A stretch of 64,000 nucleotides of DNA from Acidobacteriota bacterium (GTDB lineage: Bacteria > Acidobacteriota > UBA6911): the NCBI GenBank assembly GCA_963664705.1, contig OY761556.1:896001-960000 (forward strand), given 5' to 3'. Shown here piece after piece: positions 49,552 through 61,012 of the stretch. Under the pieces are notes generated by a model that was given only the letters and a program-made list of their open reading frames with translations, was not told the DNA's origin and did not search any database. A program made the translations under genes and the position numbers. The stretch's first letter is position 1; every line of letters begins with the position of its first letter.

Positions 49552-50673
49552 TTGGCTCAGATTGAAATTGTCCCAGTGACCAGTGCCGGTGAAATGCGGC
49601 AGTTCATTCGCTTCCCATGGCGCATCTATCGCAACGATCCTTATTGGGTGCCCCCGTTGCTGCTCGACATGAAAAATCTCCTGGACAGGAAGAAGCACCC
49701 GTTTTTTGGCCATTCGTCTGCGGAATTTTTTCTCGCCCGCCGCCAGGGGGAGCCGGTTGGGCGTATTGCAGCTATCCTCAACAACAATCACAACTCGGTT
49801 CACAAGGAACGCACCGGTTTTTTTGGATTTTTCGAATCCATTAATGATGCCGGGGTGGCAACGGCGCTTCTGGAGCGTGCCGGACAATGGGTGCGCGAGC
49901 GCGGAATGGATCGAATGCGCGGACCGATGAACTATTCGACCAATGAGACGGTCGGCCTGCTCATAGAGGGGTTTGATTCACTCCCTTGCATCATGATGCC
50001 GCATAATCCGGCCTATTACGGCGACCTGATCGAGAAATCCGGATTTTCCAAAACAATGGACTTGTATGCATGGTGGCTGTTGACGGAGAAAGGTCTGAGC
50101 CCGAAGATCACCCGTGTAGGGGAAAGAGTTCTGAAAGATCAGGGAATCCGTGTGCGTTGCATCAATATGAAGGATTATTGGGGGGACGTTGCCATCATCA
50201 AACGGATTTATAACGATGCGTGGAGCGACAACTGGGGATTTGTGCCGATGACGGATGAGGAATTCCATCATATGGCCAAAGATCTCAAGATGGTTGTGGA
50301 CCCTCGCGTCGTTCTGATCGCGGAAAAGAACGAAGAACCGGTCGCCTTCTCCCTTGCGCTCCCTGATGTGAATCAGGCTTTGAAAAAGATCAATGGAAGA
50401 CTGTTTCCCTTCGGACTGCCGCGGCTTTTATACCTTACGAGGCACATACAGCAGGTTCGCGTCCTGGCACTGGGGATTTCCAAGAAGGTACAGAATTGCA
50501 ATGGGCTCGGGGCTGCGCTGTATTACGAGTCTTTCCGACGTGGCGTGGAGGCAGGATATCGCAGTTGCGAGTTTTCCTGGACACTCGAGATCAACGACCT
50601 GATCAACCGGAGTATGCAGCTGTTCGGGGCAGAGATCTATAAACGGTACAGGATTTTCGAAAAGCCACTGTAG
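49552..50673 (+). CDS. YghO-like GNAT acyltransferase, bacterial ceramide synthase (bCerS)-like
   Basis: FIRFPWRIY..DPYWVPPL, GRIAA, GFFGFFE, RGPMN, GLLIEGF, MMPHNPAYY, NDAWSDNWGFVP, LPDVN, SWTLE.N and YKRYRIF; TTG start. Confidence 0.75.
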   Translation: MAQIEIVPVTSAGEMRQFIRFPWRIYRNDPYWVPPLLLDMKNLLDRKKHPFFGHSSAEFFLARRQGEPVGRIAAILNNNHNSVHKERTGFFGFFESINDAGVATALLERAGQWVRERGMDRMRGPMNYSTNETVGLLIEGFDSLPCIMMPHNPAYYGDLIEKSGFSKTMDLYAWWLLTEKGLSPKITRVGERVLKDQGIRVRCINMKDYWGDVAIIKRIYNDAWSDNWGFVPMTDEEFHHMAKDLKMVVDPRVVLIAEKNEEPVAFSLALPDVNQALKKINGRLFPFGLPRLLYLTRHIQQVRVLALGISKKVQNCNGLGAALYYESFRRGVEAGYRSCEFSWTLEINDLINRSMQLFGAEIYKRYRIFEKPL

Positions 50674-50696: not shown

Positions 50697-52238
50697 TTAA
50701 ACTGACGCCTGCTTGCCGCCGAGCTTTGCCAATTCTTCCGCCAGCGCCTGAACAGCGTACCGGATTTCCTCTTCGGTATGGGTTGCGCTGATAAAAAAGC
50801 GCAATCGTGCCGCATCTTCCTCCACGGCGGGATGGACAATAGGCTGAACGTTTATCTTGCGTTCAATCAAGGCCTGGCTTAGCTGCATGCATCGGATGGA
50901 ATTGCCGATGATCGCCGGAATTACCGCAACTCCAACGGCGTGGCCGGTATTGATTCCATGGCTGCGAGCCAGGTCAAGGAAAAGCTTGGATCGGTCTCGA
51001 AGCTGTTCGACCACTTTGGGAAGGCGCTGCATCAGTTCAAGGGCTTTGAGTGCCGCGGCCGCGTTGGGTGGTGCCATCCCTACGGAATACAGGAATCCGG
51101 GTGCCGTAAACTTGAGATAACGGACCAACGGGCTGTTTCCGGCAATGTAGCCTCCACAGCTTGCGAACGATTTGGAAAGAGTACCCATCCAGAGATCGAC
51201 CTCAACCGGGTCCACCCCGGGGAAGTGATGTGCGACGCCTCGCCCTGATGGCCCAAGGACTCCGAGCGAATGCGCCTCGTCGATCAGGAGGTTGCACTGG
51301 AATTTCTTCTTTATTTCAATAAGCCGCGGCAGGTCGCAGATATCTCCATCCATGGAAAAGAGGCCTTCAGAACAGATGAGCGTACGCCGGTATTGGGCGC
51401 GAATCTGTCCCAGGATATGCTCCAGATCCGCTGTGTCCGCATGCTTGAATGGCAGTCGTTTGGCTCCGGAAAGGTAGATGCCCTGGAGAATACTGTCGTG
51501 GCAGAGAGAATCGTGCAGGACCAGGTCGTTCTTATCGTACAGGTGTCCAATGGTGGTTACATTGGTGGCATGCCCGCTTACAAAGACAACCGCATCCTCG
51601 ACGCCAATATGTTGGGCAATTCCTTTTTCAAGATCCCGATGAATTTGTCGTTCGCCGGAAACCGGGCGGCTGGCGGAAACGGAAGTGCCGTATCGGTCGA
51701 TGGCGTCTTTGGCGGCGGCACTCACCTCAGGATGACCGGATAGGCCGAGGTAGTTATAGCTCGAGAAATTCAGCATATCGATTCCATCGATAACGCTGTG
51801 GTTTCTGGCTGTGCCTTCATGAACATGAAAATATGGATTTCTCAATCCGGCCGCTTCAATCTCCAGCAGGCGTTCTCCGATGCTTTTTATCTCCGGGAAC
51901 TTTCTTGTATCCCAAAATTCCGGGTTGGCACCTCCCGGTTGCGGCACCGCTTCGCCTTGAGCTTCAGGCGATTCTTCGGGCAGGCTAAATCCGGACGGAA
52001 GCTTCTTGTGGATCAAATCCAGCAGATCGCGCACATTGCTGAGAGACGCCACTTCTTCATCTGCGATGCGGATCGAAAGGTTTTCCTCGAGCACGCCGAT
52101 CACTTCCATCATGGCTACAGAATCCAGACCCAGTTCAGAAATGGGCGTAGCCGGGCTCAACTGATCGAAGTCCCTCAAATTGACATCGTAAACCGCAGCC
52201 CTGAGCACATTTAGAAGATTTTGATCCGTGCTTTCCAT
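50697..52238 (-). CDS. ACP-fused alpha-oxoamine synthase (serine palmitoyltransferase-like)
   Basis: N-terminal ACP (LGLDSV); NFSSYNYLGL, FSMDGD, DEAHS and GTLSKS (PLP Lys). Confidence 0.85.
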   Translation of the reverse strand: MESTDQNLLNVLRAAVYDVNLRDFDQLSPATPISELGLDSVAMMEVIGVLEENLSIRIADEEVASLSNVRDLLDLIHKKLPSGFSLPEESPEAQGEAVPQPGGANPEFWDTRKFPEIKSIGERLLEIEAAGLRNPYFHVHEGTARNHSVIDGIDMLNFSSYNYLGLSGHPEVSAAAKDAIDRYGTSVSASRPVSGERQIHRDLEKGIAQHIGVEDAVVFVSGHATNVTTIGHLYDKNDLVLHDSLCHDSILQGIYLSGAKRLPFKHADTADLEHILGQIRAQYRRTLICSEGLFSMDGDICDLPRLIEIKKKFQCNLLIDEAHSLGVLGPSGRGVAHHFPGVDPVEVDLWMGTLSKSFASCGGYIAGNSPLVRYLKFTAPGFLYSVGMAPPNAAAALKALELMQRLPKVVEQLRDRSKLFLDLARSHGINTGHAVGVAVIPAIIGNSIRCMQLSQALIERKINVQPIVHPAVEEDAARLRFFISATHTEEEIRYAVQALAEELAKLGGKQASV

Positions 52239-52382: not shown

Positions 52383-54104
52383 TTAACCTAGAACAAGGCT
52401 TTCGGCACGCTGGGGCGTAGCGCATTGGTTCGAATTGCCCAGCAGGCCATCTTCGAACAGCGCCTTGGTCCTCCGCCGCTGCAGCTTTCCGCTGGAAGTC
52501 TTGGGAATGGATCCTCGCCCGACCAGGACAACCTTATCCACGGAAAGGCTAAAGGCAGAACGAACCTGGTCACTAACGGCGCGGGCCAATGCCACATTAT
52601 CCTGCATGGTGGTTTCTGCGATGATGATCAGCTTCTCGGTGGATTCCCCATCAACCGAGAATGCCACGACGCTTCCTTTTCGGATTCCGGATATCTCCTC
52701 GACCACCCACTCAATGGCCTGTGGCGGATAGTTGCGTCCATTGATGATAACCAGATCCTTCTGTCTGCCCGAAATATATAGATCCCCGTTCAGGATGAAT
52801 CCGAGATCCCCTGTGTGCAGCCATCCCCCTTTCAGGAGCTGGCTGGAGGCCTCCGGGTTTTGAAAGTAGCCGGGAGTGACGCTGGGGCCCTTGAACACAA
52901 TTTCGCCGACCTTCCCCTCGGGGAGCGATTTGCCCTTCTCATCCAGAATTCTGAGTTCGTGTTCTCTGAAGGTCCGTCCGCAGGAAACGAGTTCAAATCT
53001 CTTCTTGGGATCTCCGTCGTCATCACCATTCAATGGCACCGCAACGTTTTTTGACTCGTACAGATGCCGGTTGAGTACCAGCTTTCGTACGGGGCGGTGC
53101 AAATGATCAAACGCGATCGCAAGCGTCGCCTCGGCCATCCCGTAGCAAGGCATGATGGCGTGCGATTTGAGTCCCCAGGGTTCGAAGGTGGACAGGAATT
53201 TTTCCATTGTCCTGGGATTGATCGGTTCGGCGCCGCATCCCAATACACGCAGGCACGACAGATCCAGTTCCATCCTGGACTTTTTCGGTGCGCGCTTGGT
53301 CGCAAGATCGAATGCGAAGTTGGGGCCGAAGGTAATCGATGCCCGATATTTGTGTACTGTTTCCATCCAAACCGCGGGGTGTTTTACAAATGCAATCGTC
53401 GGAATGAATATCGCCGGTATCTGCGCCACGAGAGTCGAAATGACGAATCCGATCAAACCCATGTCGTGATACAACGGAAGCCAGGAAACCGCCCGGTCAA
53501 AATCCGGCTTTATCTCCAGGGTCTCGATAATTGCATGAGCATTTGCAATGAGGTTGCGGTGCGTTACCACAACGCCGCGCGGAGCCGAGGTGGATCCGGA
53601 GGTGAACTGAAGGAAACATGGATCGTCAGGCTTGATAGTGAATTCCTGCAGAACGATATCCGGGTCGGCATTTCTCAGCCGCTGAACATTCAACAGCTCT
53701 TTTAGTGCAGGCAGACGGGAGAGAAGAGGATCCAGGACAGGGATAAAATCCCCGGTGGTGATCAACGCATTCGCGCCGGAAACACGCAGGATACCGGTCG
53801 CCCGCTCGAGATAGTTGTCCATTCGGCCAAGCGCCAGCGGGGGATAAAGCGGAACGGGCATAAGCCCGGCAACGATGGTGCCCAGGAATGTGAGGACAAA
53901 GTCTTCCGGAGAGTTCAGCACAAGGGCAACACGGTCTCCCTTTGCCAGACCCATCGCCTGGAGAGAAGCTCCGATGCGCTTCGCTTCCTTAAAAACGTCG
54001 GCAAAAGACCAGTCCGTGGGATTCAGGTCGTTATCAAGGAACGTATAGCCTTTGTGCGTTATAGACGAAGCCGCATCGCGGGCATCGGTAAGCGTTCCTA
54101 ACAT
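52383..54104 (-). CDS. fatty acyl-AMP ligase (FAAL)
   Basis: FLQFTSGSTSAPRGV, SWLPLYHDMGLIG, PCYGMAEATL, TGDLGF, GRQKD and PKTSSGKLQR motifs. Confidence 0.9.
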   Translation of the reverse strand: MLGTLTDARDAASSITHKGYTFLDNDLNPTDWSFADVFKEAKRIGASLQAMGLAKGDRVALVLNSPEDFVLTFLGTIVAGLMPVPLYPPLALGRMDNYLERATGILRVSGANALITTGDFIPVLDPLLSRLPALKELLNVQRLRNADPDIVLQEFTIKPDDPCFLQFTSGSTSAPRGVVVTHRNLIANAHAIIETLEIKPDFDRAVSWLPLYHDMGLIGFVISTLVAQIPAIFIPTIAFVKHPAVWMETVHKYRASITFGPNFAFDLATKRAPKKSRMELDLSCLRVLGCGAEPINPRTMEKFLSTFEPWGLKSHAIMPCYGMAEATLAIAFDHLHRPVRKLVLNRHLYESKNVAVPLNGDDDGDPKKRFELVSCGRTFREHELRILDEKGKSLPEGKVGEIVFKGPSVTPGYFQNPEASSQLLKGGWLHTGDLGFILNGDLYISGRQKDLVIINGRNYPPQAIEWVVEEISGIRKGSVVAFSVDGESTEKLIIIAETTMQDNVALARAVSDQVRSAFSLSVDKVVLVGRGSIPKTSSGKLQRRRTKALFEDGLLGNSNQCATPQRAESLVLG

Positions 54105-54333: not shown

Positions 54334-55326
54334 TCACAGCCACCCATGGTTCCGGTACCATTCGACGGTGCTCCGCATGCCGTCTTGCAGGTTGATTTGC
54401 GGACTAAACCCCAGGAGCTTGCGTGCCTTCGTTGTGTTGCATAGCCAGCAGGGGTGCAGGAGTTCCCTTACTTTCTGGCTGCTGACCGTTGAGGGTCGCT
54501 TGGTAATGCCCGCCCACAAATCCCCGGCAAAACCAGCCATCTTGGCAATAAGCGGCGGGAAAGCAATTCTGCGATATGTTTTGGCCAACTCCTGAGCGAT
54601 CGTGCGACCGACTTCATCCCAGGTATATATTTCCTCACGCGAAATAAAGAAGACCTCGCCCGAGGCGATGGATAGCTCTCCGGCAAGGATAAGGGCATCG
54701 GCCAAGTCGTCGACATGGATGAGGCTGAAACGCCGTGTGAAGCGGCCTGGAGTAAAGAGACAGCCCCGCTGAATCATGCGGAAGATCAAAAGTGTTTCAC
54801 GATCGCCGGGTCCATAAACAGCGGAAGGACGCAGAATCGCAACGTGAAAAGCTTTGGCAAAGCGCAGCACCTCTGCCTCGGCCGCCAGTTTACTTTCTCC
54901 GTACCAGGAAATCGGCTTGGGCGGATAGTCTTCGGTGAGGCCCGTTCCATCGGAGCTTGGACCGGCGGCGGCAAGGCTGCTCACGTGAACAAAGCGGCGA
55001 ATACCGGAACTTTCCGAAAGAGCTTCCAGGAGTTGTCGTGTGCCGATCTGGTTGGTTTGGAAAAAGGCATCGCGATTGGCGGCCTTGATGGCTCCGGCAA
55101 CATGATAAACAGTTTCGATCCCCGTTACAGCCTTGCGCATGCCTGCCGCATTTCCCAGATCTGCGAGTTGCAGCCGGATCGGCATTTTTGCGAGCGCGCG
55201 CGTGTCACTCGTGCTGCGCACGAGGCAGGTAACCGCATAGCCCTTTTCAATCAGTTTCCGGACGAGGTTGATTCCGACGAATCCTGTCGCACCTGTAACC
55301 AGCACTGCGGGTTTTATTTCAGTCAT
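54334..55326 (-). CDS. extended SDR / NAD-dependent epimerase-dehydratase (candidate ceramide or 3-keto reductase)
   Basis: VTGATGFVG, SSLAA, YGESK and RPSAVYGPGD motifs. Confidence 0.85.
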   Translation of the reverse strand: MTEIKPAVLVTGATGFVGINLVRKLIEKGYAVTCLVRSTSDTRALAKMPIRLQLADLGNAAGMRKAVTGIETVYHVAGAIKAANRDAFFQTNQIGTRQLLEALSESSGIRRFVHVSSLAAAGPSSDGTGLTEDYPPKPISWYGESKLAAEAEVLRFAKAFHVAILRPSAVYGPGDRETLLIFRMIQRGCLFTPGRFTRRFSLIHVDDLADALILAGELSIASGEVFFISREEIYTWDEVGRTIAQELAKTYRRIAFPPLIAKMAGFAGDLWAGITKRPSTVSSQKVRELLHPCWLCNTTKARKLLGFSPQINLQDGMRSTVEWYRNHGWL

Positions 55327-55438: not shown

Positions 55439-57610
55439 CTAAAGAAGCAATACGGAGAGTAATAAAAGTGGAATCATGAGATAGGAAGTCATTGCCATGC
55501 CGACAAGAGGCGCAAAAAACAGGCTGGCCAGGATCGATCCAAGACAACCCCCGATAAGATCAGCGGCATAAAGGGGGGTAACTGCCGCACGTTGATCGGA
55601 TGCGTCGTGGAAGCCGGCGTAGGCGAAGATTGCGGCCACCAGGATTCCGGTCATGACCAGGAAGGCAAAGCACTGTGAAAGGGAGGCAATGGCTCCCGCC
55701 GCTATTTGCCTGCCCATTACTCCGCTAAGAATGACAAGGCTTCCCAACAGGAGGATGCCGAGAGTCTTGGGCGGATTGAGACTGAGCCTCTCAATGACAT
55801 AGCATCCCAACGCCAAACCGGCCATAAAGCCTGTAAGAAGAAGTCCCAGGTCTTGGAAGAGCACACCGCATTTGGTCTGGAAATATAAAATCAGCACGGT
55901 TTCCAAGGTCATTCCCGAAAAGGCGACAACTCCCATGAGCAGCGCGCGCCGGATTGGCCAGCGAGCCCAGGTCAGCAGCAATGCCGGGATGCTGATAGCC
56001 AGCAGCCAAAGTACTTTGCGGTCAAAACGGACTTCGGGAATGGAGGGATCCCAATACCGGGCGGATGGGAGCAGTTTGGAGAGCCAGATCATGGCGGTGT
56101 ACTGATAGCAAACAGGACGAATATCGGTGTTCATGGGTGCGCGGGAGGATTCAAGCGTTTTCGCGATTTCCTGAAAACGATCATTCGTGAATAGGTATCG
56201 CAGGTAAGGCGGCGATACAATTTTTGTCTTCAATTGCCTTTCGACAAATCTGGATGCCAGGAGCGCCGGATCCCTGGTAAGGGCTCCCATGGAACAGACA
56301 ACGACATTCGTGCTTCCGGGAATAAAAAGGACCTCTGAAAAAGCCGACCGGGCGGCACGGTAGATGCCTGTCATCCTTCGCGTCAATTGCGGACTCCAGA
56401 TGTTCTCGGACGATTGGAGGCTGAAGGCAATTACTCCATTCGGGTTCAGCTTTGCCCGGCACTGCCTGAAGAATTCGCTTGTGTAAAACCGATTGGCCTG
56501 TCCCGAGCTGGGTTCAGGCATGCCGATGAGAATCAAATCATAGGACAGGGCGGCTTCGAGAAACTGGCGGGGATCCGCGACAATGATCCGGACATTGCTT
56601 GCCTGCAGCGATTTTTGAATTTGCGGTGTCTGGTTGGGGGGCACCAAGTCCAACAGCGTTTGATTCAGCTCCACATAATCGACGACTTGGGGAGAGTGCA
56701 TCAAGACCTGGTAAACAGTGCCTTCAATGCCCCCGCCGAGGATAAGCACTCGCCGTGGATTGGAATGCTGGAGCGCCGCCAGATGAACAAATTCCTCCGG
56801 GCGTGTGGATTCCGTATCAAACAGCAGAGCATCATTCTCAAAAACGGAGACCTGCCCATCGAGAAACGTGACCGTGATTCTTGAATACGGGGAATCCTGG
56901 GCATCCACCAGCGTGGGATGGGTCCAGGCTGTCATTTGGCGGTCAAGCGTGGGAGCTTTCCATACCAGAAACATCAATCCGGCAACCAATGCCAGGGCAA
57001 GCGCCCGCATTTTTTCGAGGGAATGCCCGTCGAAATCCAGGAAGGAGCATCCGGCGGCGACCAATGCGCACAGGAGAGCAATAAGAAAATTCTGAAAACC
57101 GAAACGCAGCAGCAAGGTGGCGCTCAAACCGCCGGCAAGCCCGCCAATACTCTCAATGGCGTATGCCGTTGCCAGCGATCTTCCACTGTCAATCGCAACC
57201 CTGGCGCTCCAGCGGAAAAGAAGTCCGAGGAGCAAACCTACCGGAAGAATGGACGCACCGATTGCTGCAATCTGGGTGGGCAGGGGAAGATAGGCTCCAG
57301 GAAGATCGGTCAGCCGTAGCCGAATCGATCGGATAAAGGCGATGTCCAAAGGGAGAATGATGGCGAATAACAGGAAGAACAGGTTTATCAGAAAAATAGA
57401 CGGAGCGGATGACCGCGAGCGCCGGAGCAAGGTGCCGCATGCGGTTGAAAGCATCCATATCCCTAGTGCCAGTGTATAGACCAGTTCAATTCCATAAGAG
57501 GCCACGCTCAATTCGCGCAGCAGCACAACCTGCCCCAATATAGACAGGAATCCCACCCCCAGGAGATATCCAATGCTGGAGTCGGATCGACGCAATCCTT
57601 GCATAATCAT
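55439..57610 (-). CDS. polytopic membrane protein with an internal spermidine-synthase-like SAM-binding domain
   Basis: N- and C-terminal TM blocks (LGQVVLLRE, YAIESIGG, YAADLIGG) around DSPYSRI, EEFVH, VLILGGG, YVELN and NRFYTSEFF. Start uncertain. Confidence 0.8.
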   Translation of the reverse strand: MIMQGLRRSDSSIGYLLGVGFLSILGQVVLLRELSVASYGIELVYTLALGIWMLSTACGTLLRRSRSSAPSIFLINLFFLLFAIILPLDIAFIRSIRLRLTDLPGAYLPLPTQIAAIGASILPVGLLLGLLFRWSARVAIDSGRSLATAYAIESIGGLAGGLSATLLLRFGFQNFLIALLCALVAAGCSFLDFDGHSLEKMRALALALVAGLMFLVWKAPTLDRQMTAWTHPTLVDAQDSPYSRITVTFLDGQVSVFENDALLFDTESTRPEEFVHLAALQHSNPRRVLILGGGIEGTVYQVLMHSPQVVDYVELNQTLLDLVPPNQTPQIQKSLQASNVRIIVADPRQFLEAALSYDLILIGMPEPSSGQANRFYTSEFFRQCRAKLNPNGVIAFSLQSSENIWSPQLTRRMTGIYRAARSAFSEVLFIPGSTNVVVCSMGALTRDPALLASRFVERQLKTKIVSPPYLRYLFTNDRFQEIAKTLESSRAPMNTDIRPVCYQYTAMIWLSKLLPSARYWDPSIPEVRFDRKVLWLLAISIPALLLTWARWPIRRALLMGVVAFSGMTLETVLILYFQTKCGVLFQDLGLLLTGFMAGLALGCYVIERLSLNPPKTLGILLLGSLVILSGVMGRQIAAGAIASLSQCFAFLVMTGILVAAIFAYAGFHDASDQRAAVTPLYAADLIGGCLGSILASLFFAPLVGMAMTSYLMIPLLLLSVLLL

Positions 57611-57714
57611 GGGGTCAACTGGTTTCCTATGGTTGCGCCAAAAAGCCCAAATATGCGGCAAAATCGCGCCTTATGGGTCTGTTTTTCCATTTCCACTCAC
57701 TACTATTGAATCTA

Positions 57715-59274
57715 TTATTTTTCTCCCGGTCCGCCACCGGCGAATTGCGATTCGCTGAAGACGTCTGCCTGAAAGATCTGGAATTCGGCGCCCTGTTTCC
57801 AACAGCCGGATGTGATGCCTGCCTTTCTGCAGAGATTGTCGAGCATCTCTGTCCGGCTCCACTTATTTTCGGTTGCCACCTGCGGCAGGAAGACGGCGGA
57901 GCGTCCTGCCTTGGACAGCAGCACGCCATCGCGGCCTACGACGATTTCACTGACAGAGGCTATGGGCTGCATCGGCGTGAGCACAGAAATTTCAATCTCC
58001 AGGTTCTTGAGTTCACTCCATTCCACGGGAGTGAATCTGGGATCACTGAATGCCGATTGCAGCGACATCATGCCGACGGTTTTGCTCAGTTCGGTATTGC
58101 TGGCCATTAGCCCGATGCATCCCCGCAATTCTCCTTTTTTGCGCAGCGTTACGAAAGCTCCCTGCCGCACTTTCAACCTGGCGGGGAAATCAACGGTTGG
58201 CTGCGGGGCCTGGGGGGATAGGTGGTGAAGGATGGTTGCCCTCGAGAGAGACAGAAGCATCTTCTTTTCGGCGGGCTGAAGCGGCGTTGTGCCCGAAAGC
58301 CCGGGGATTTCGCGATCCAGTGCCTGGGCCGACGCTGCGCCCGAATCCAGTACAACAGCTCCGTACCCTACAATACGGGACCGATCTCCGCCGGGCGTAT
58401 CTCCTGAGTTCGCATAACTCGCCACAAAAGCGCGCCTGGCTCCAAGGCTTTTGGCCGCAGTTATTCCGGCAATAATGGCCGCTTCTCCACACGCCCTTGT
58501 TGCAAGATTGGGCACATCCAGTTCTTTCATCGTGGAGGCAAATCGGACCGTGTCGAGGGATGCGATGGCGTCCAGCGTCTGGTGGTCTGTTTTGGATGCA
58601 TTTTCATAGGATGGATAGTGGGACAGGTCGGAGCTGATCACGATCAATGCGCGACGATTCTTCAGTACTTTGCCCAACGCTTTTCCAAACCGGACGCACA
58701 TATCGTAATCGGGCGGATGAATGATGGCCGGCACAACAAGGGCTTTGGGGAAGAGTACCTGGATAAACGGAAGCTGTACCTCGATGGAATGCTCGGCAAT
58801 ATGGACCTGTCGGCTCTGAACGCAATCCTTGCATTCAGATAGCAGCGCGGCGGTGAGATTGGTGTCAACGGGAATTTCGCCCAGAGGCGTGCGCAGAGCG
58901 CCGTAATTGCCGAGGGAAACGCCCCTAAAATCCCCGGTTGTATGATTCACGCCAAGAATGACGATGGTGTCATAATTGACTCCCATCGCCTGTCGATAAC
59001 CATTCGCGCAAATTTGCCCGGAGTAAACATACCCGGCATGGGGGACAAGGATGGCGATAGGATTGCCGGCATTTCCCGTGGCGGAGCGCTTTAGGTATGC
59101 TTCGATGGCAGATCTCAGTTTTTCCGGGTCCGAGGGATAAAACTGGCCTGCAACTGCCGGAGGGCGGACATCGGTTTCCGCGGCGGATCCGATTTGGACT
59201 CCACAGAGAAGCAATACCATGGTTGCCGGAAGCATTTTCCAGCGGATATGCAAAACCGGAGAGATAAATCTCAT
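57715..59274 (-). CDS. amrB: AmmeMemoRadiSam system protein B (MEMO1)-protein A (AMMECR1) fusion with an N-terminal signal peptide
   Basis: RPPAVAGQFYP, PHAGYVYSG, EHSIEVQLPF, SSDLSHY and ACG; then GAFVTL..LRGCIG, DPRF and FLPQVA. Confidence 0.9.
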   Translation of the reverse strand: MRFISPVLHIRWKMLPATMVLLLCGVQIGSAAETDVRPPAVAGQFYPSDPEKLRSAIEAYLKRSATGNAGNPIAILVPHAGYVYSGQICANGYRQAMGVNYDTIVILGVNHTTGDFRGVSLGNYGALRTPLGEIPVDTNLTAALLSECKDCVQSRQVHIAEHSIEVQLPFIQVLFPKALVVPAIIHPPDYDMCVRFGKALGKVLKNRRALIVISSDLSHYPSYENASKTDHQTLDAIASLDTVRFASTMKELDVPNLATRACGEAAIIAGITAAKSLGARRAFVASYANSGDTPGGDRSRIVGYGAVVLDSGAASAQALDREIPGLSGTTPLQPAEKKMLLSLSRATILHHLSPQAPQPTVDFPARLKVRQGAFVTLRKKGELRGCIGLMASNTELSKTVGMMSLQSAFSDPRFTPVEWSELKNLEIEISVLTPMQPIASVSEIVVGRDGVLLSKAGRSAVFLPQVATENKWSRTEMLDNLCRKAGITSGCWKQGAEFQIFQADVFSESQFAGGGPGEK

Positions 59275-59316
59275 GCCTTGCTCCTTCGATGGTCTGCGTG
59301 TCCTGCTATTTGCCTG

Positions 59317-60510
59317 CTACGCCCAGACTCCCGCGATTTCTTTCCCGCAGTATTTGCAGGTGCCTCGGTTCATATGGATGCCTGCTATGAAGATGGAACT
59401 TCGTTCGATGACGACCTTCCCGCATCTCGGGCAGTAGGTTTGATTCCCGGGATGGTTGGGGACATTCCCGACATAGGCGTAATGAATCCCCTTTTCCATT
59501 GCATAGTTCCTGAAGCGCTCCAACGTTGCGATGGGAGTCGGCGGCAGGTTCAGCAGCTGGTAGTCGGGATGAAAGCGCGTGAAATGGATCGGAACATCCG
59601 GGCCGATTTCGCCCATGATCCAATCCACGAGTCCCTGCAGCATTTTTTTTGAGTCATTCAACGTCGGGACAACGAGATTTACGATCTCGAGATGAATGCC
59701 GCTTCTGGCAATCTGGCGGATGCTGTTGAGAACGGGCTGAAGCTCGGCGCTGCAGACTCTCCTGTAGAAATCCGGGCTGAAACCTTTCAGATCGATTTTG
59801 ATGGCATCCAGAACGCGGCACAGCTCAGACAGCGGTTCCGTGTTCATGAATCCGCAGCTGACCATGACGCATCGCAATTTCCTTTTCCTTGCAAGTTCGG
59901 CGGTGTCGGCCAGATATTCGATAAACACTGTAGGTTCATTGTAGGTAAAAGCAATTACCGGGGATTGTTTGGATTCCGCAGTACTGACCAGTTCGGCCGG
60001 CTGCACAAAAGGAACGCTGAAGTCCTCCGGTCGTGATTGAGAGATCTCCCAGTTCTGACAGAATTTGCAATGCAGGGGGCATCCGGAGGTGGCGAATGAG
60101 AACGCCTCCGATCCCGGAAGAAAATGGTAGAAGGGCTTTTTCTCAATGGGATCCACATGGATGGCAACGGGCCTTCCGTAGACCAGGCTGCGCAGCTCGC
60201 CGTCAACATTCATCCGCGCCCGGCATTTCCCCCGATCTCCGCTTTTCAATATGCAGCCCTGGGCGCACAGAAGACACTTGATGAAAGCAGGCTTGCCCGT
60301 ATGCGCCGCCGCCCGGAGGTATGTTTGCTGTCCGTGACAGACAGAACAGGCGGTTCCAGTTGAGGTCGAGGCCCAGTAGCGGGCTTTCGGAGCCATCCGT
60401 GCCAGGTCGGAAGTGCGGTCGAAGAACGACGGGTAGGCAAAAGCCAGACCTGCTCCAACAGTGGAGCCAAGGCCGGCCGCTGAAATGAGGAATTTGCGTC
60501 GGGAGATCAT
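59317..60510 (-). CDS. amrS: AmmeMemoRadiSam system radical SAM enzyme with a Tat signal
   Basis: SRRKFL plus hydrophobic stretch; DPIEKKPFYHFLPG, GCPLHCKFCQNWEISQ, FTYNEP, HFTRFHPDY, YVGNV and TYCPRCG. Confidence 0.92.
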   Translation of the reverse strand: MISRRKFLISAAGLGSTVGAGLAFAYPSFFDRTSDLARMAPKARYWASTSTGTACSVCHGQQTYLRAAAHTGKPAFIKCLLCAQGCILKSGDRGKCRARMNVDGELRSLVYGRPVAIHVDPIEKKPFYHFLPGSEAFSFATSGCPLHCKFCQNWEISQSRPEDFSVPFVQPAELVSTAESKQSPVIAFTYNEPTVFIEYLADTAELARKRKLRCVMVSCGFMNTEPLSELCRVLDAIKIDLKGFSPDFYRRVCSAELQPVLNSIRQIARSGIHLEIVNLVVPTLNDSKKMLQGLVDWIMGEIGPDVPIHFTRFHPDYQLLNLPPTPIATLERFRNYAMEKGIHYAYVGNVPNHPGNQTYCPRCGKVVIERSSIFIAGIHMNRGTCKYCGKEIAGVWA

Positions 60511-60527: not shown

Positions 60528-60556
60528 ACGATAATCCCCAGATAACCATGTGTCAA
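60528..60556 (-). promoter_or_regulatory. sigma70-type promoter of the amrS operon
   Basis: Minus strand TTGACA-N17-TATCGT, with -10 box 17 nt upstream of the ATG. Confidence 0.6.
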
Positions 60557-60592: not shown

Positions 60593-60612
60593 GTATATCC
60601 ATATGGATATAC
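60593..60612. promoter_or_regulatory. perfect 20-bp palindrome between divergent promoters
   Basis: GTATATCCATATGGATATAC. Confidence 0.6.
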
Positions 60613-60760
60613 CTAGGGCTAGATAAGAACCATATTTTCCGGGGGAATTACCCCCTGTCATGGTAAAATCGGCGAGCTTTACTAATCTGGCTTGGCTATT
60701 GGCGGCTTTACAGGATCGAAAGTTATCTTTTTACGTGGGTATGGAGGAGGGATAAGGGCG

Positions 60761-61012
60761 ATGAGTGATGAAGATATCAAAGCGGAACTCGAGAGATTGC
60801 GGGCGGAAAATGAAGCTCTCAAACGGTCTTCTTCCAAAGGACTGTCTTTGAGAGTAAGCGAAAAGGGCGCTGTTTCGGTATATGGACTCGGACGGTTTCC
60901 TGTCACGCTCTATAAGGAACAATGGCTTCGACTTCTGGATATGTCGGAAGATATCCGGATGTTCATCAATCAGAATGAAGCGCAGCTTAAATCCAAGGCC
61001 GCGCAGTCTTAA
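60761..61012 (+). CDS. small conserved hypothetical protein
   Basis: Coiled-coil N-terminus, then VSEKGAVSVYGLGRFPVTLYKEQW; GGAGG upstream. Confidence 0.8.
   Translation: MSDEDIKAELERLRAENEALKRSSSKGLSLRVSEKGAVSVYGLGRFPVTLYKEQWLRLLDMSEDIRMFINQNEAQLKSKAAQS

Follow-up and report, generated by a model that had tools for sequence, protein, structure and literature searches.

Can radical S-adenosylmethionine (SAM) chemistry take place outside the bacterial cytoplasm? Such chemistry is regarded as cytoplasmic, since it depends on SAM, on a strong reductant and on a cluster that is sensitive to oxygen. The question is raised by a three-gene cassette at positions 55439..60510 of the window analyzed here (the whole stretch of 64,000 nucleotides from contig OY761556.1 of an Acidobacteriota bacterium). 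The cassette encodes, all on the minus strand, (i) AmrS, the radical SAM enzyme of the AmmeMemoRadiSam system (59317..60510, 397 aa); (ii) a fusion of Memo (AmrB) with AMMECR1 (AmrA) (57715..59274, 519 aa); and (iii) a membrane protein (55439..57661), the two intergenic gaps being 42 and 53 bp long. The first-pass annotation, which had given the same overall span for three co-oriented genes, took them for a cell-envelope version of the system, and our results point the same way: the leaders of both soluble proteins are conserved, the membrane gene co-occurs specifically with this type of AmrS, and the SAM-fold domain of the membrane protein is predicted to lie outside and to dock onto AmrS. 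The reading that we favor, with a probability of roughly 0.55, is a membrane-anchored, envelope-facing complex in which the major facilitator superfamily (MFS) core of the membrane protein would supply SAM to a docked AmrS exported by twin-arginine translocation (Tat). The outside location of the system, taken by itself, we consider probable.

Leaders on AmrS and on the Memo–AMMECR1 fusion

AmrS scores 366 bits with TIGR04337 (curated cut-off 220), which identifies it as an AmmeMemoRadiSam enzyme. Its CxxxCxxC motif (C144, C148 and C151) and two additional four-cysteine sets are invariant in the aligned rows (60/60), and its closest solved fold is that of the pyruvate formate-lyase (PFL)-activating enzyme (3cb8; Foldseek E 1e-14, TM 0.79 by target). 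The Memo–AMMECR1 fusion scores 252 bits with TIGR04336 (cut-off 26) and 168 bits with TIGR04335 (cut-off 99), and its residues H79, H111, H162, D216, H219, C262 and C386 are invariant in 64 rows. Conservation was followed in the best 80 of at least 590 relatives recovered by a scan of genome contigs and ranked with the leader in the query; judging by the record titles, they come mostly from Acidobacteriota, Desulfobacterota/Syntrophales, Ignavibacteria and candidate phyla. Memo lies directly downstream of AmrS in 73 of these 80 loci.

The predicted Tat signal of AmrS spans residues 1–25 (60436..60510, minus strand) and ends in an AxA-type site; the SRRKFL stretch at residues 3–8 conforms to the twin-arginine consensus S/T-R-R-x-F-L. 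The N-terminus is exactly as given by the first-pass annotation, and the twin-arginine motif is found in 77 of the 80 loci, two of the three misses being cut by a contig end and the third frameshifted. The count to rely on is that for all loci, as the perfect count in the AmrS alignment (60/60) is circular, its rows having been picked by the motif. By way of background, the pattern [ST]RRx[FL][LIFVM] occurs within the first 35 residues of 30 out of 4067 long open reading frames (ORFs) of the same genome (0.7%). RRxF/L is retained in AmrS from different phyla. In this genome, the canonical AmrS has no leader, and leaderless AmrS, AmrB and AmrA are encoded at four other, unlinked places of the host genome.

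Is the leader translated? A σ70-type promoter-like site, TTGACA-17-TATCGT (60528..60556, minus strand), ends 18 nt ahead of the AmrS ATG, as the first-pass annotation had proposed in placing one promoter before the three genes. The number of such sites in the region is at chance level (5 found against 3.5 ± 2.0 in shuffled sequences). The TTGACA box and a TAT-type box 17–18 nt further on nevertheless occupy the same position in all five nearest relatives displayed, and a purine-rich, ribosome-binding-like site precedes the ATG. The conserved position of the boxes places the start of AmrS upstream of the twin arginines and speaks against a true start downstream of the signal; the leader is very likely translated.

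The Memo–AMMECR1 fusion carries a Sec-type leader (about 59179–59274). Its N-terminus matches that described by the first-pass annotation, except that Met1, preceded by a GGAG 7 nt upstream, is the more likely start than the Met14 quoted there, the signal being present from either. A hydrophobic leader was found on all 73 cassette Memo fusions scored (12-residue hydropathy 1.96–3.54; one frameshifted copy was left out), and it is lipobox-like in 19 of 64 by a loose pattern and in 3 of 64 by a strict one.

Ahead of the AmrS core, an inserted loop that the first-pass annotation had missed contains a CxxCH motif (C55, C58 and H59; 60334..60348, minus strand). The motif is found in 78 of the 80 loci and is followed by an additional histidine in 59/59. 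The loop is short and modeled with low confidence (pLDDT 54–59); from its residues, it may be a haem c site or a Cys2His2 metal site. Two other cysteines, C219 and C231 (about 59818–59856), are specific to the leader-bearing clade; they possibly form a disulfide, which would fit an outside location.

Reading 22 AmrS loci directly, we found a twin-arginine leader and no CxxCH in the seven members of a second clade, and neither feature in 15 canonical AmrS. This second exported clade is seen at L085–L087 (G069, G070 and G073), and in L085 and L086 its membrane gene is convergent to AmrS and Memo–AMMECR1. Because the 80 loci had been ranked with the leader in the query, we also ran a core-only search and built a tree from 132 of its 150 hits plus the query (18 partial hits were dropped), leaders being labeled by simple rules rather than by SignalP. 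Of the 34 leader- or anchor-bearing AmrS, 33 group in a single clade of 42 members (support 0.90) and the remaining one is among the 91 proteins outside it. Several of the unlabeled members of the clade have RK-type leaders or membrane fusions.

The membrane protein and its predicted docking onto AmrS

The third gene had been described as a multi-pass membrane protein with a spermidine-synthase-like domain, which holds true, but its complete MFS fold had gone unnoticed. The protein is 740 aa long from the TTG at 57661 and 723 aa from the ATG at 57610, the ATG at 57610 or 57604 being the more likely start. Hydropathy averaged over 45 orthologues reveals 14 helices, seven on either side of a 310-residue domain (56027..56956; residues 219–528 counted from the ATG at 57610), and the protein scores 62 bits with PF01564 (cut-off 22.9). 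In the AlphaFold2 model (pLDDT 90.6, pTM 0.90), helices 1–6 and 9–14 make up an MFS fold and the spermidine-synthase-fold domain is inserted between helices 7 and 8. The model superposes on VMAT2 (Z 28.5, 332 residues, root-mean-square deviation 3.4; VIA) and on the aminopropyltransferase 1uir (Z 26.5, 278 residues, root-mean-square deviation 2.9; VIA), and the majority of the 50 structure matches listed are MFS transporters. The two halves of the protein align weakly to each other (E 1.4e-5, probability 58%). Since MFS proteins have both termini in the cytoplasm and seven helices precede the SAM-fold domain, this domain is predicted to be extracytoplasmic. The positive-inside pattern agrees with the MFS fold: the loops on the N-terminal side contain on average 0.6, 2.8, 2.9, 3.2, 3.7, 4.3 and 1.7 Lys + Arg, as against 1.0, 2.1, 0.4, 1.0, 0.7 and 0.0 on the side of the SAM-fold domain.

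The membrane gene is present in 64 of the 80 loci, and 10 of the 16 misses have less than 3.2 kb of DNA left. In four loci, genes are inserted between Memo and the membrane gene; they are unrelated, three being antiporter-like (cation/proton) and one homocysteine methyltransferase-like by eye. The co-occurrence that the first-pass annotation had suggested surveying was followed in 116 genomes of the host class (17 weakest or partial rows, below 259 bits, excluded; kin not independent): a copy of the membrane gene is found at no more than 5 kb from 33 out of 35 AmrS of the cassette clade, 3 out of 7 of the second clade and 0 out of 70 canonical AmrS.

Does the membrane protein bind AmrS? The complex modeled between mature AmrS and the SAM-fold domain scored 0.89 in three runs, the best of three controls reaching 0.14; the mark used for this score was attained by 116 of 157 solved complexes and by 2 of 215 mismatched pairs, counts that apply only approximately with the alignments used. 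Contacts agreed to at least 93% between runs, with a pLDDT of at least 88 for the partner, and we found no solved AmrS or MFS–synthase fusion that the model could have copied. On the AmrS side, the interface involves residues 115–121, residues 152–158 (directly after the cluster cysteines), Y190, which aligns with the GGE SAM-binding motif of the PFL-activating enzyme, and residues 314–329. The partner's interface is somewhat better conserved than the remainder of the domain (0.68 versus 0.59; p 0.018, kin not independent). N403 and R478, both invariant, belong to it, and AmrS H118 (92% in the clade) touches the two of them with the lowest errors in the model. The SAM-fold domain is thus predicted to cap the SAM/cluster face, i.e. 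the active site, of AmrS. The docking model supports binding and is not proof of it; if it is right, AmrS lies on the side of the outward domain, which ties together two independent predictions of location. The predicted contacts are directly testable through H118 and F374 of AmrS and Q253, N403 and R478 of the membrane protein. Note that a DPIEKKP motif considered as a counterpart of the peptide-binding motif of the PFL-activating enzyme was not supported, the alignment having stopped short of it.

The SAM-fold domain has lost the two aspartates of spermidine synthases. Position 295, equivalent to D103, the acid of GxG(D/E)G that binds decarboxylated SAM, is Asp or Glu in 0 of 45 orthologues, and position 363, equivalent to the general base D173, is Gly in 32, Ala in 11, Asn in one, Ser in one and Asp in none of the 45. 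The adenosine-binding acids, which serve in ribose and adenine binding, are kept (E314 in 41/45, D346 in 45/45). Judged from these residues, the domain does not function as a spermidine synthase. According to the available text of PMC3725402, the D103I change abolishes the activity of spermidine synthase and confers SAM-dependent methyl transfer, and D103I together with V106T converts the enzyme to a methyltransferase. Because the synthase aspartates are lost, the adenosine-binding acids are kept and isoleucine has such precedents, the domain likely binds SAM. In the MFS core, three buried acids (E33, E153 and D684) never vary and a fourth (E570) is found in 44/45, as expected for the carrier of a cation, an observation that is suggestive only.

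The same residues lend themselves to another reading, in which the system also lies outside and the membrane protein is an active methyltransferase, acting on the product of AmrS, on a partner protein or on AmrS itself, whose His118 is at the predicted interface, the MFS core feeding the protein's own site with SAM or flipping a lipid-linked substrate. Its model would be the N-terminal histidine methyltransferase NHMT, a seven-helix enzyme that acts on secreted fungal proteins as far as the available text of PMC10349129 goes: an isoleucine at GxG(D/E)G followed 19 residues on by a glutamate reproduces the I322/E340 signature given there, Ile295 and Thr298 of the query correspond to the D103I and V106T changes of the accessible part of PMC3725402, and the contacts of H118 with N403 and R478 would place a candidate methyl acceptor at the interface. 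In putrescine methyltransferase, however, the Asp equivalent to D173 holds SAM and the amine in position, whereas 45/45 orthologues have Gly, Ala, Asn or Ser at this site; Thr298 is found in only 14/45, position 295 is variable, the glycine loop is not retained in the second clade, and canonical systems do without the membrane gene altogether (0/70). We therefore hold this second reading to be rather unlikely, while rating it above the other alternatives.

Electron supply, proposed mechanism and the case against it

Further indications of location and of an electron source come from AmrS fusions. Among 20 long hits that were scanned, five contain FMN_bind with a flavinylation motif, three NapH-like Fer4_5, three DsbD_2, one CBM_11 and one a PorZ-type propeller. 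P0006 and P0009 have a single hydrophobic segment, at the N-terminus, and their flavin domain is not separated from the enzyme core by any membrane helix. PMC8238504, from what is accessible of it, assigns flavinylated and NapH-like proteins to electron transfer outside the cytosol, and neither Memo nor DUF362 occurs in its main text. Fusions to extracytosolic domains are thus independent support for the outside location and suggest where the electrons come from. Other architectures were also seen: P0013, P0022 and P0026 join AmrS to a NosR-like chain (FMN_bind and NapH-like Fer4_5, with DsbD_2 as well in P0026), i.e. an electron wire and a radical SAM enzyme in a single polypeptide; in P0017 and P0027, both with a leader, AmrS, Memo and AMMECR1 are joined in one protein; and P0096 contains an intein with a LAGLIDADG domain. 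As to export and cytochrome machinery, the host genome encodes two TatC and has three PF01578 (cytochrome c assembly) genes.

The mechanism that we propose starts from one conserved cassette in which, by sequence, the catalytic and metal residues of AmrS, Memo and AMMECR1 are intact. AmrS would acquire its Fe–S cluster(s) in the cytoplasm and then be exported folded via Tat, whereas Memo–AMMECR1 would leave via Sec, as a lipoprotein in some lineages. The membrane protein, with both termini inside, would hold its SAM-fold domain outside over the SAM/cluster face of AmrS; its MFS core with the buried acids would carry SAM outward and probably return the spent adenosine product, and the outer domain would bind SAM rather than decarboxylated SAM, so that no aminopropyl transfer takes place. 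Electrons would reach the cluster through the CxxCH loop from a membrane electron wire encoded elsewhere, a wire that relatives fuse to AmrS. Finally, the 5'-deoxyadenosyl radical would act jointly with the cysteine of AMMECR1 and the metal site of Memo to modify a molecule of the envelope, for which a membrane lipid or a lipid-linked compound at the membrane surface is the likeliest candidate. The parts of this scheme are not equally secure. SAM delivery by the MFS protein is something that we infer, at about even odds. The full relay, with the exporter passing SAM via its own outward domain into the Tat-exported enzyme and electrons entering by a haem-c loop, is conceivable but falls short of even odds. 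The lipid nature of the substrate is doubtful, a guess from location and from a proposal on Memo contexts, Burroughs et al. 2019 having reportedly linked Memo to nucleotide-base and isoprenoid modification.

Several observations weigh against the favored reading. The AmrS leader scores 10.9 bits with TIGR01409, below the cut-off of 16.7, which, for a model of 29 positions, lowers the likelihood of Tat export and does not exclude it; of 11 leaders tested, one passed this model, and Pfam TAT_signal matches 2 out of 60. Thirteen representatives have a hydrophobic leader without twin arginines; a Tat-only route does not explain these, so that cluster assembly outside or another route would be needed. 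The attachment of haem c normally requires an unfolded, Sec-exported chain, so that haem at CxxCH would conflict with Tat export; the loop is in any case dispensable in some lineages, both exceptions to the motif being Smithella. The membrane gene is missing from six loci despite some 8 kb of downstream DNA, the glycine loop of its SAM-fold domain is degenerate in the second clade, the cassette contains no gene for an electron wire, and a search of the 80 loci yielded no fourth conserved gene. Lastly, the AmrS contact residues are mostly common to canonical AmrS, H118 and F374 alone being clade-specific, and the docking score may therefore not be specific to the clade.

Part of these observations would be accounted for if the complex were tethered to the membrane but faced the cytoplasm, with leaders that serve as anchors without being cleaved, or are relics, and with the SAM-fold domain inside, where SAM and low-potential reductants are found. 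The weak individual Tat scores, the hydrophobic leaders without twin arginines and an h-region of moderate hydrophobicity (12-residue hydropathy 1.44 in the query, median 1.68) would suit such an arrangement. It fits poorly, however, with an RRxF/L pattern conserved across phyla, with lipobox-like Memo leaders (19/64 loosely, 3 strictly), with seven helices ahead of the domain in an MFS fold whose N-terminus is inside, and with the fusions of the clade to flavinylation-motif and carbohydrate-binding domains, and we consider it improbable. Least probable of all is a radical step performed by AmrS in the cytoplasm on itself or a partner before export of a complex that is no longer radical-based (redox relay or sensing): maturation of a periplasmic effector while still in the cytoplasm is proposed for the HXS radical SAM enzymes in the available portion of PMC13128918, and no reductant would be required outside, but those enzymes are described there as having no signal peptide, whereas AmrS itself has one, and the outward domain predicted to cap its active site, like the fused electron wires, makes sense only with catalysis outside.

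If the envelope-facing, SAM-supplied complex is real, a widespread clade extends radical SAM chemistry to a new compartment, with a candidate SAM supply and a candidate entry for electrons; radical SAM catalysis outside the bacterial cytoplasm, and a dedicated export of SAM for it, would then be seen for the first time, in many, mostly anaerobic phyla, and would point to an unknown envelope modification. It also offers a handle on the unsolved function of Memo, AMMECR1 and their radical SAM enzyme, the first two of which have disease-linked human homologues. An outside location speaks against RNA as the substrate of the leader-bearing branch and, as many hosts carry both versions, separate knockouts are possible.

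Surroundings of the cassette and relation to known systems

Downstream of the cassette lie genes for an NAD-dependent epimerase/reductase (54334–55326, minus strand), a fatty acyl-AMP ligase (52383–54104, minus strand), an acyl carrier protein fused to a serine palmitoyltransferase-like enzyme (50697–52238, minus strand) and a convergent GNAT protein (49552–50673, plus strand), which we take to resemble a bacterial sphingolipid/ceramide or aminolipid cluster. In the 112 bp between it and the cassette, we found no terminator-like site. We rejected this cluster as functional support, as it adjoins the cassette in 4 of the 80 loci only, all close kin. Upstream, a perfect 20-bp palindrome (60593–60612) lies between the divergent genes. 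Its distance to the −35 box downstream is about 35 bp, with a 10-bp direct repeat in between; the palindrome occurs once in the genome and is not conserved among the relatives. A small divergent ORF (60692–61012), without Pfam or NCBIfam match, adjoins the cassette in four near relatives. Elsewhere (L082:2115–7998; G000:C1, about 170100–176000), a divergent leaderless AmrS-like gene is embedded in an ABC uptake operon of metal/cobalamin type; after it come two uncharacterized genes and a methyltransferase-like gene whose product has a signal-like N-terminus by eye.

How does the cassette relate to systems already described? The PFL-activating enzyme, which shares its fold with AmrS, is 16% identical to it, cytoplasmic and devoid of both the leader and the extra Cys domains, and AmrS scores 53.5 bits against a PFLA cut-off of 231.75. 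With spermidine synthases and membrane polyamine aminopropyltransferases, the membrane protein shares the fold of the inserted domain (Z 26.5 to 1uir) and the adenosine-binding acids, while staying below the cut-offs of TIGR00417 (104.8 versus 472 bits), PRK03612 (74.7 versus 249.55) and NF037959 (19.1 versus 40) and having the synthase aspartates in 0 of 45 orthologues. The last of these models, which describes fused MFS/spermidine synthases, is matched by 25 of the 45 orthologues at E ≤ 0.001; judged from sequence, the architecture is the same and the subfamily different. The likeness to fungal NHMT (AN4663; PMC10349129, as far as its text is available) consists of seven helices followed by a spermidine-synthase-fold domain, an isoleucine in place of the acid for decarboxylated SAM and the SAM-binding glutamate; the cassette protein differs in being bacterial, linked to AmrS and extended by seven helices that complete the MFS fold, the two having been compared by motifs and not by direct sequence alignment. 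We found no description of an exported, transporter-docked AmmeMemoRadiSam form in the literature searched, Burroughs et al. 2019 not being covered. Canonical AmmeMemoRadiSam is the closest counterpart: the cassette passes all three of its models (TIGR04335 for A, TIGR04336 for B and TIGR04337) with catalytic residues intact, and departs from it by export-type leaders on both soluble proteins, the B–A fusion, the CxxCH insert and the MFS-fold partner. The AmmeMemoRadiSam family itself is already known.

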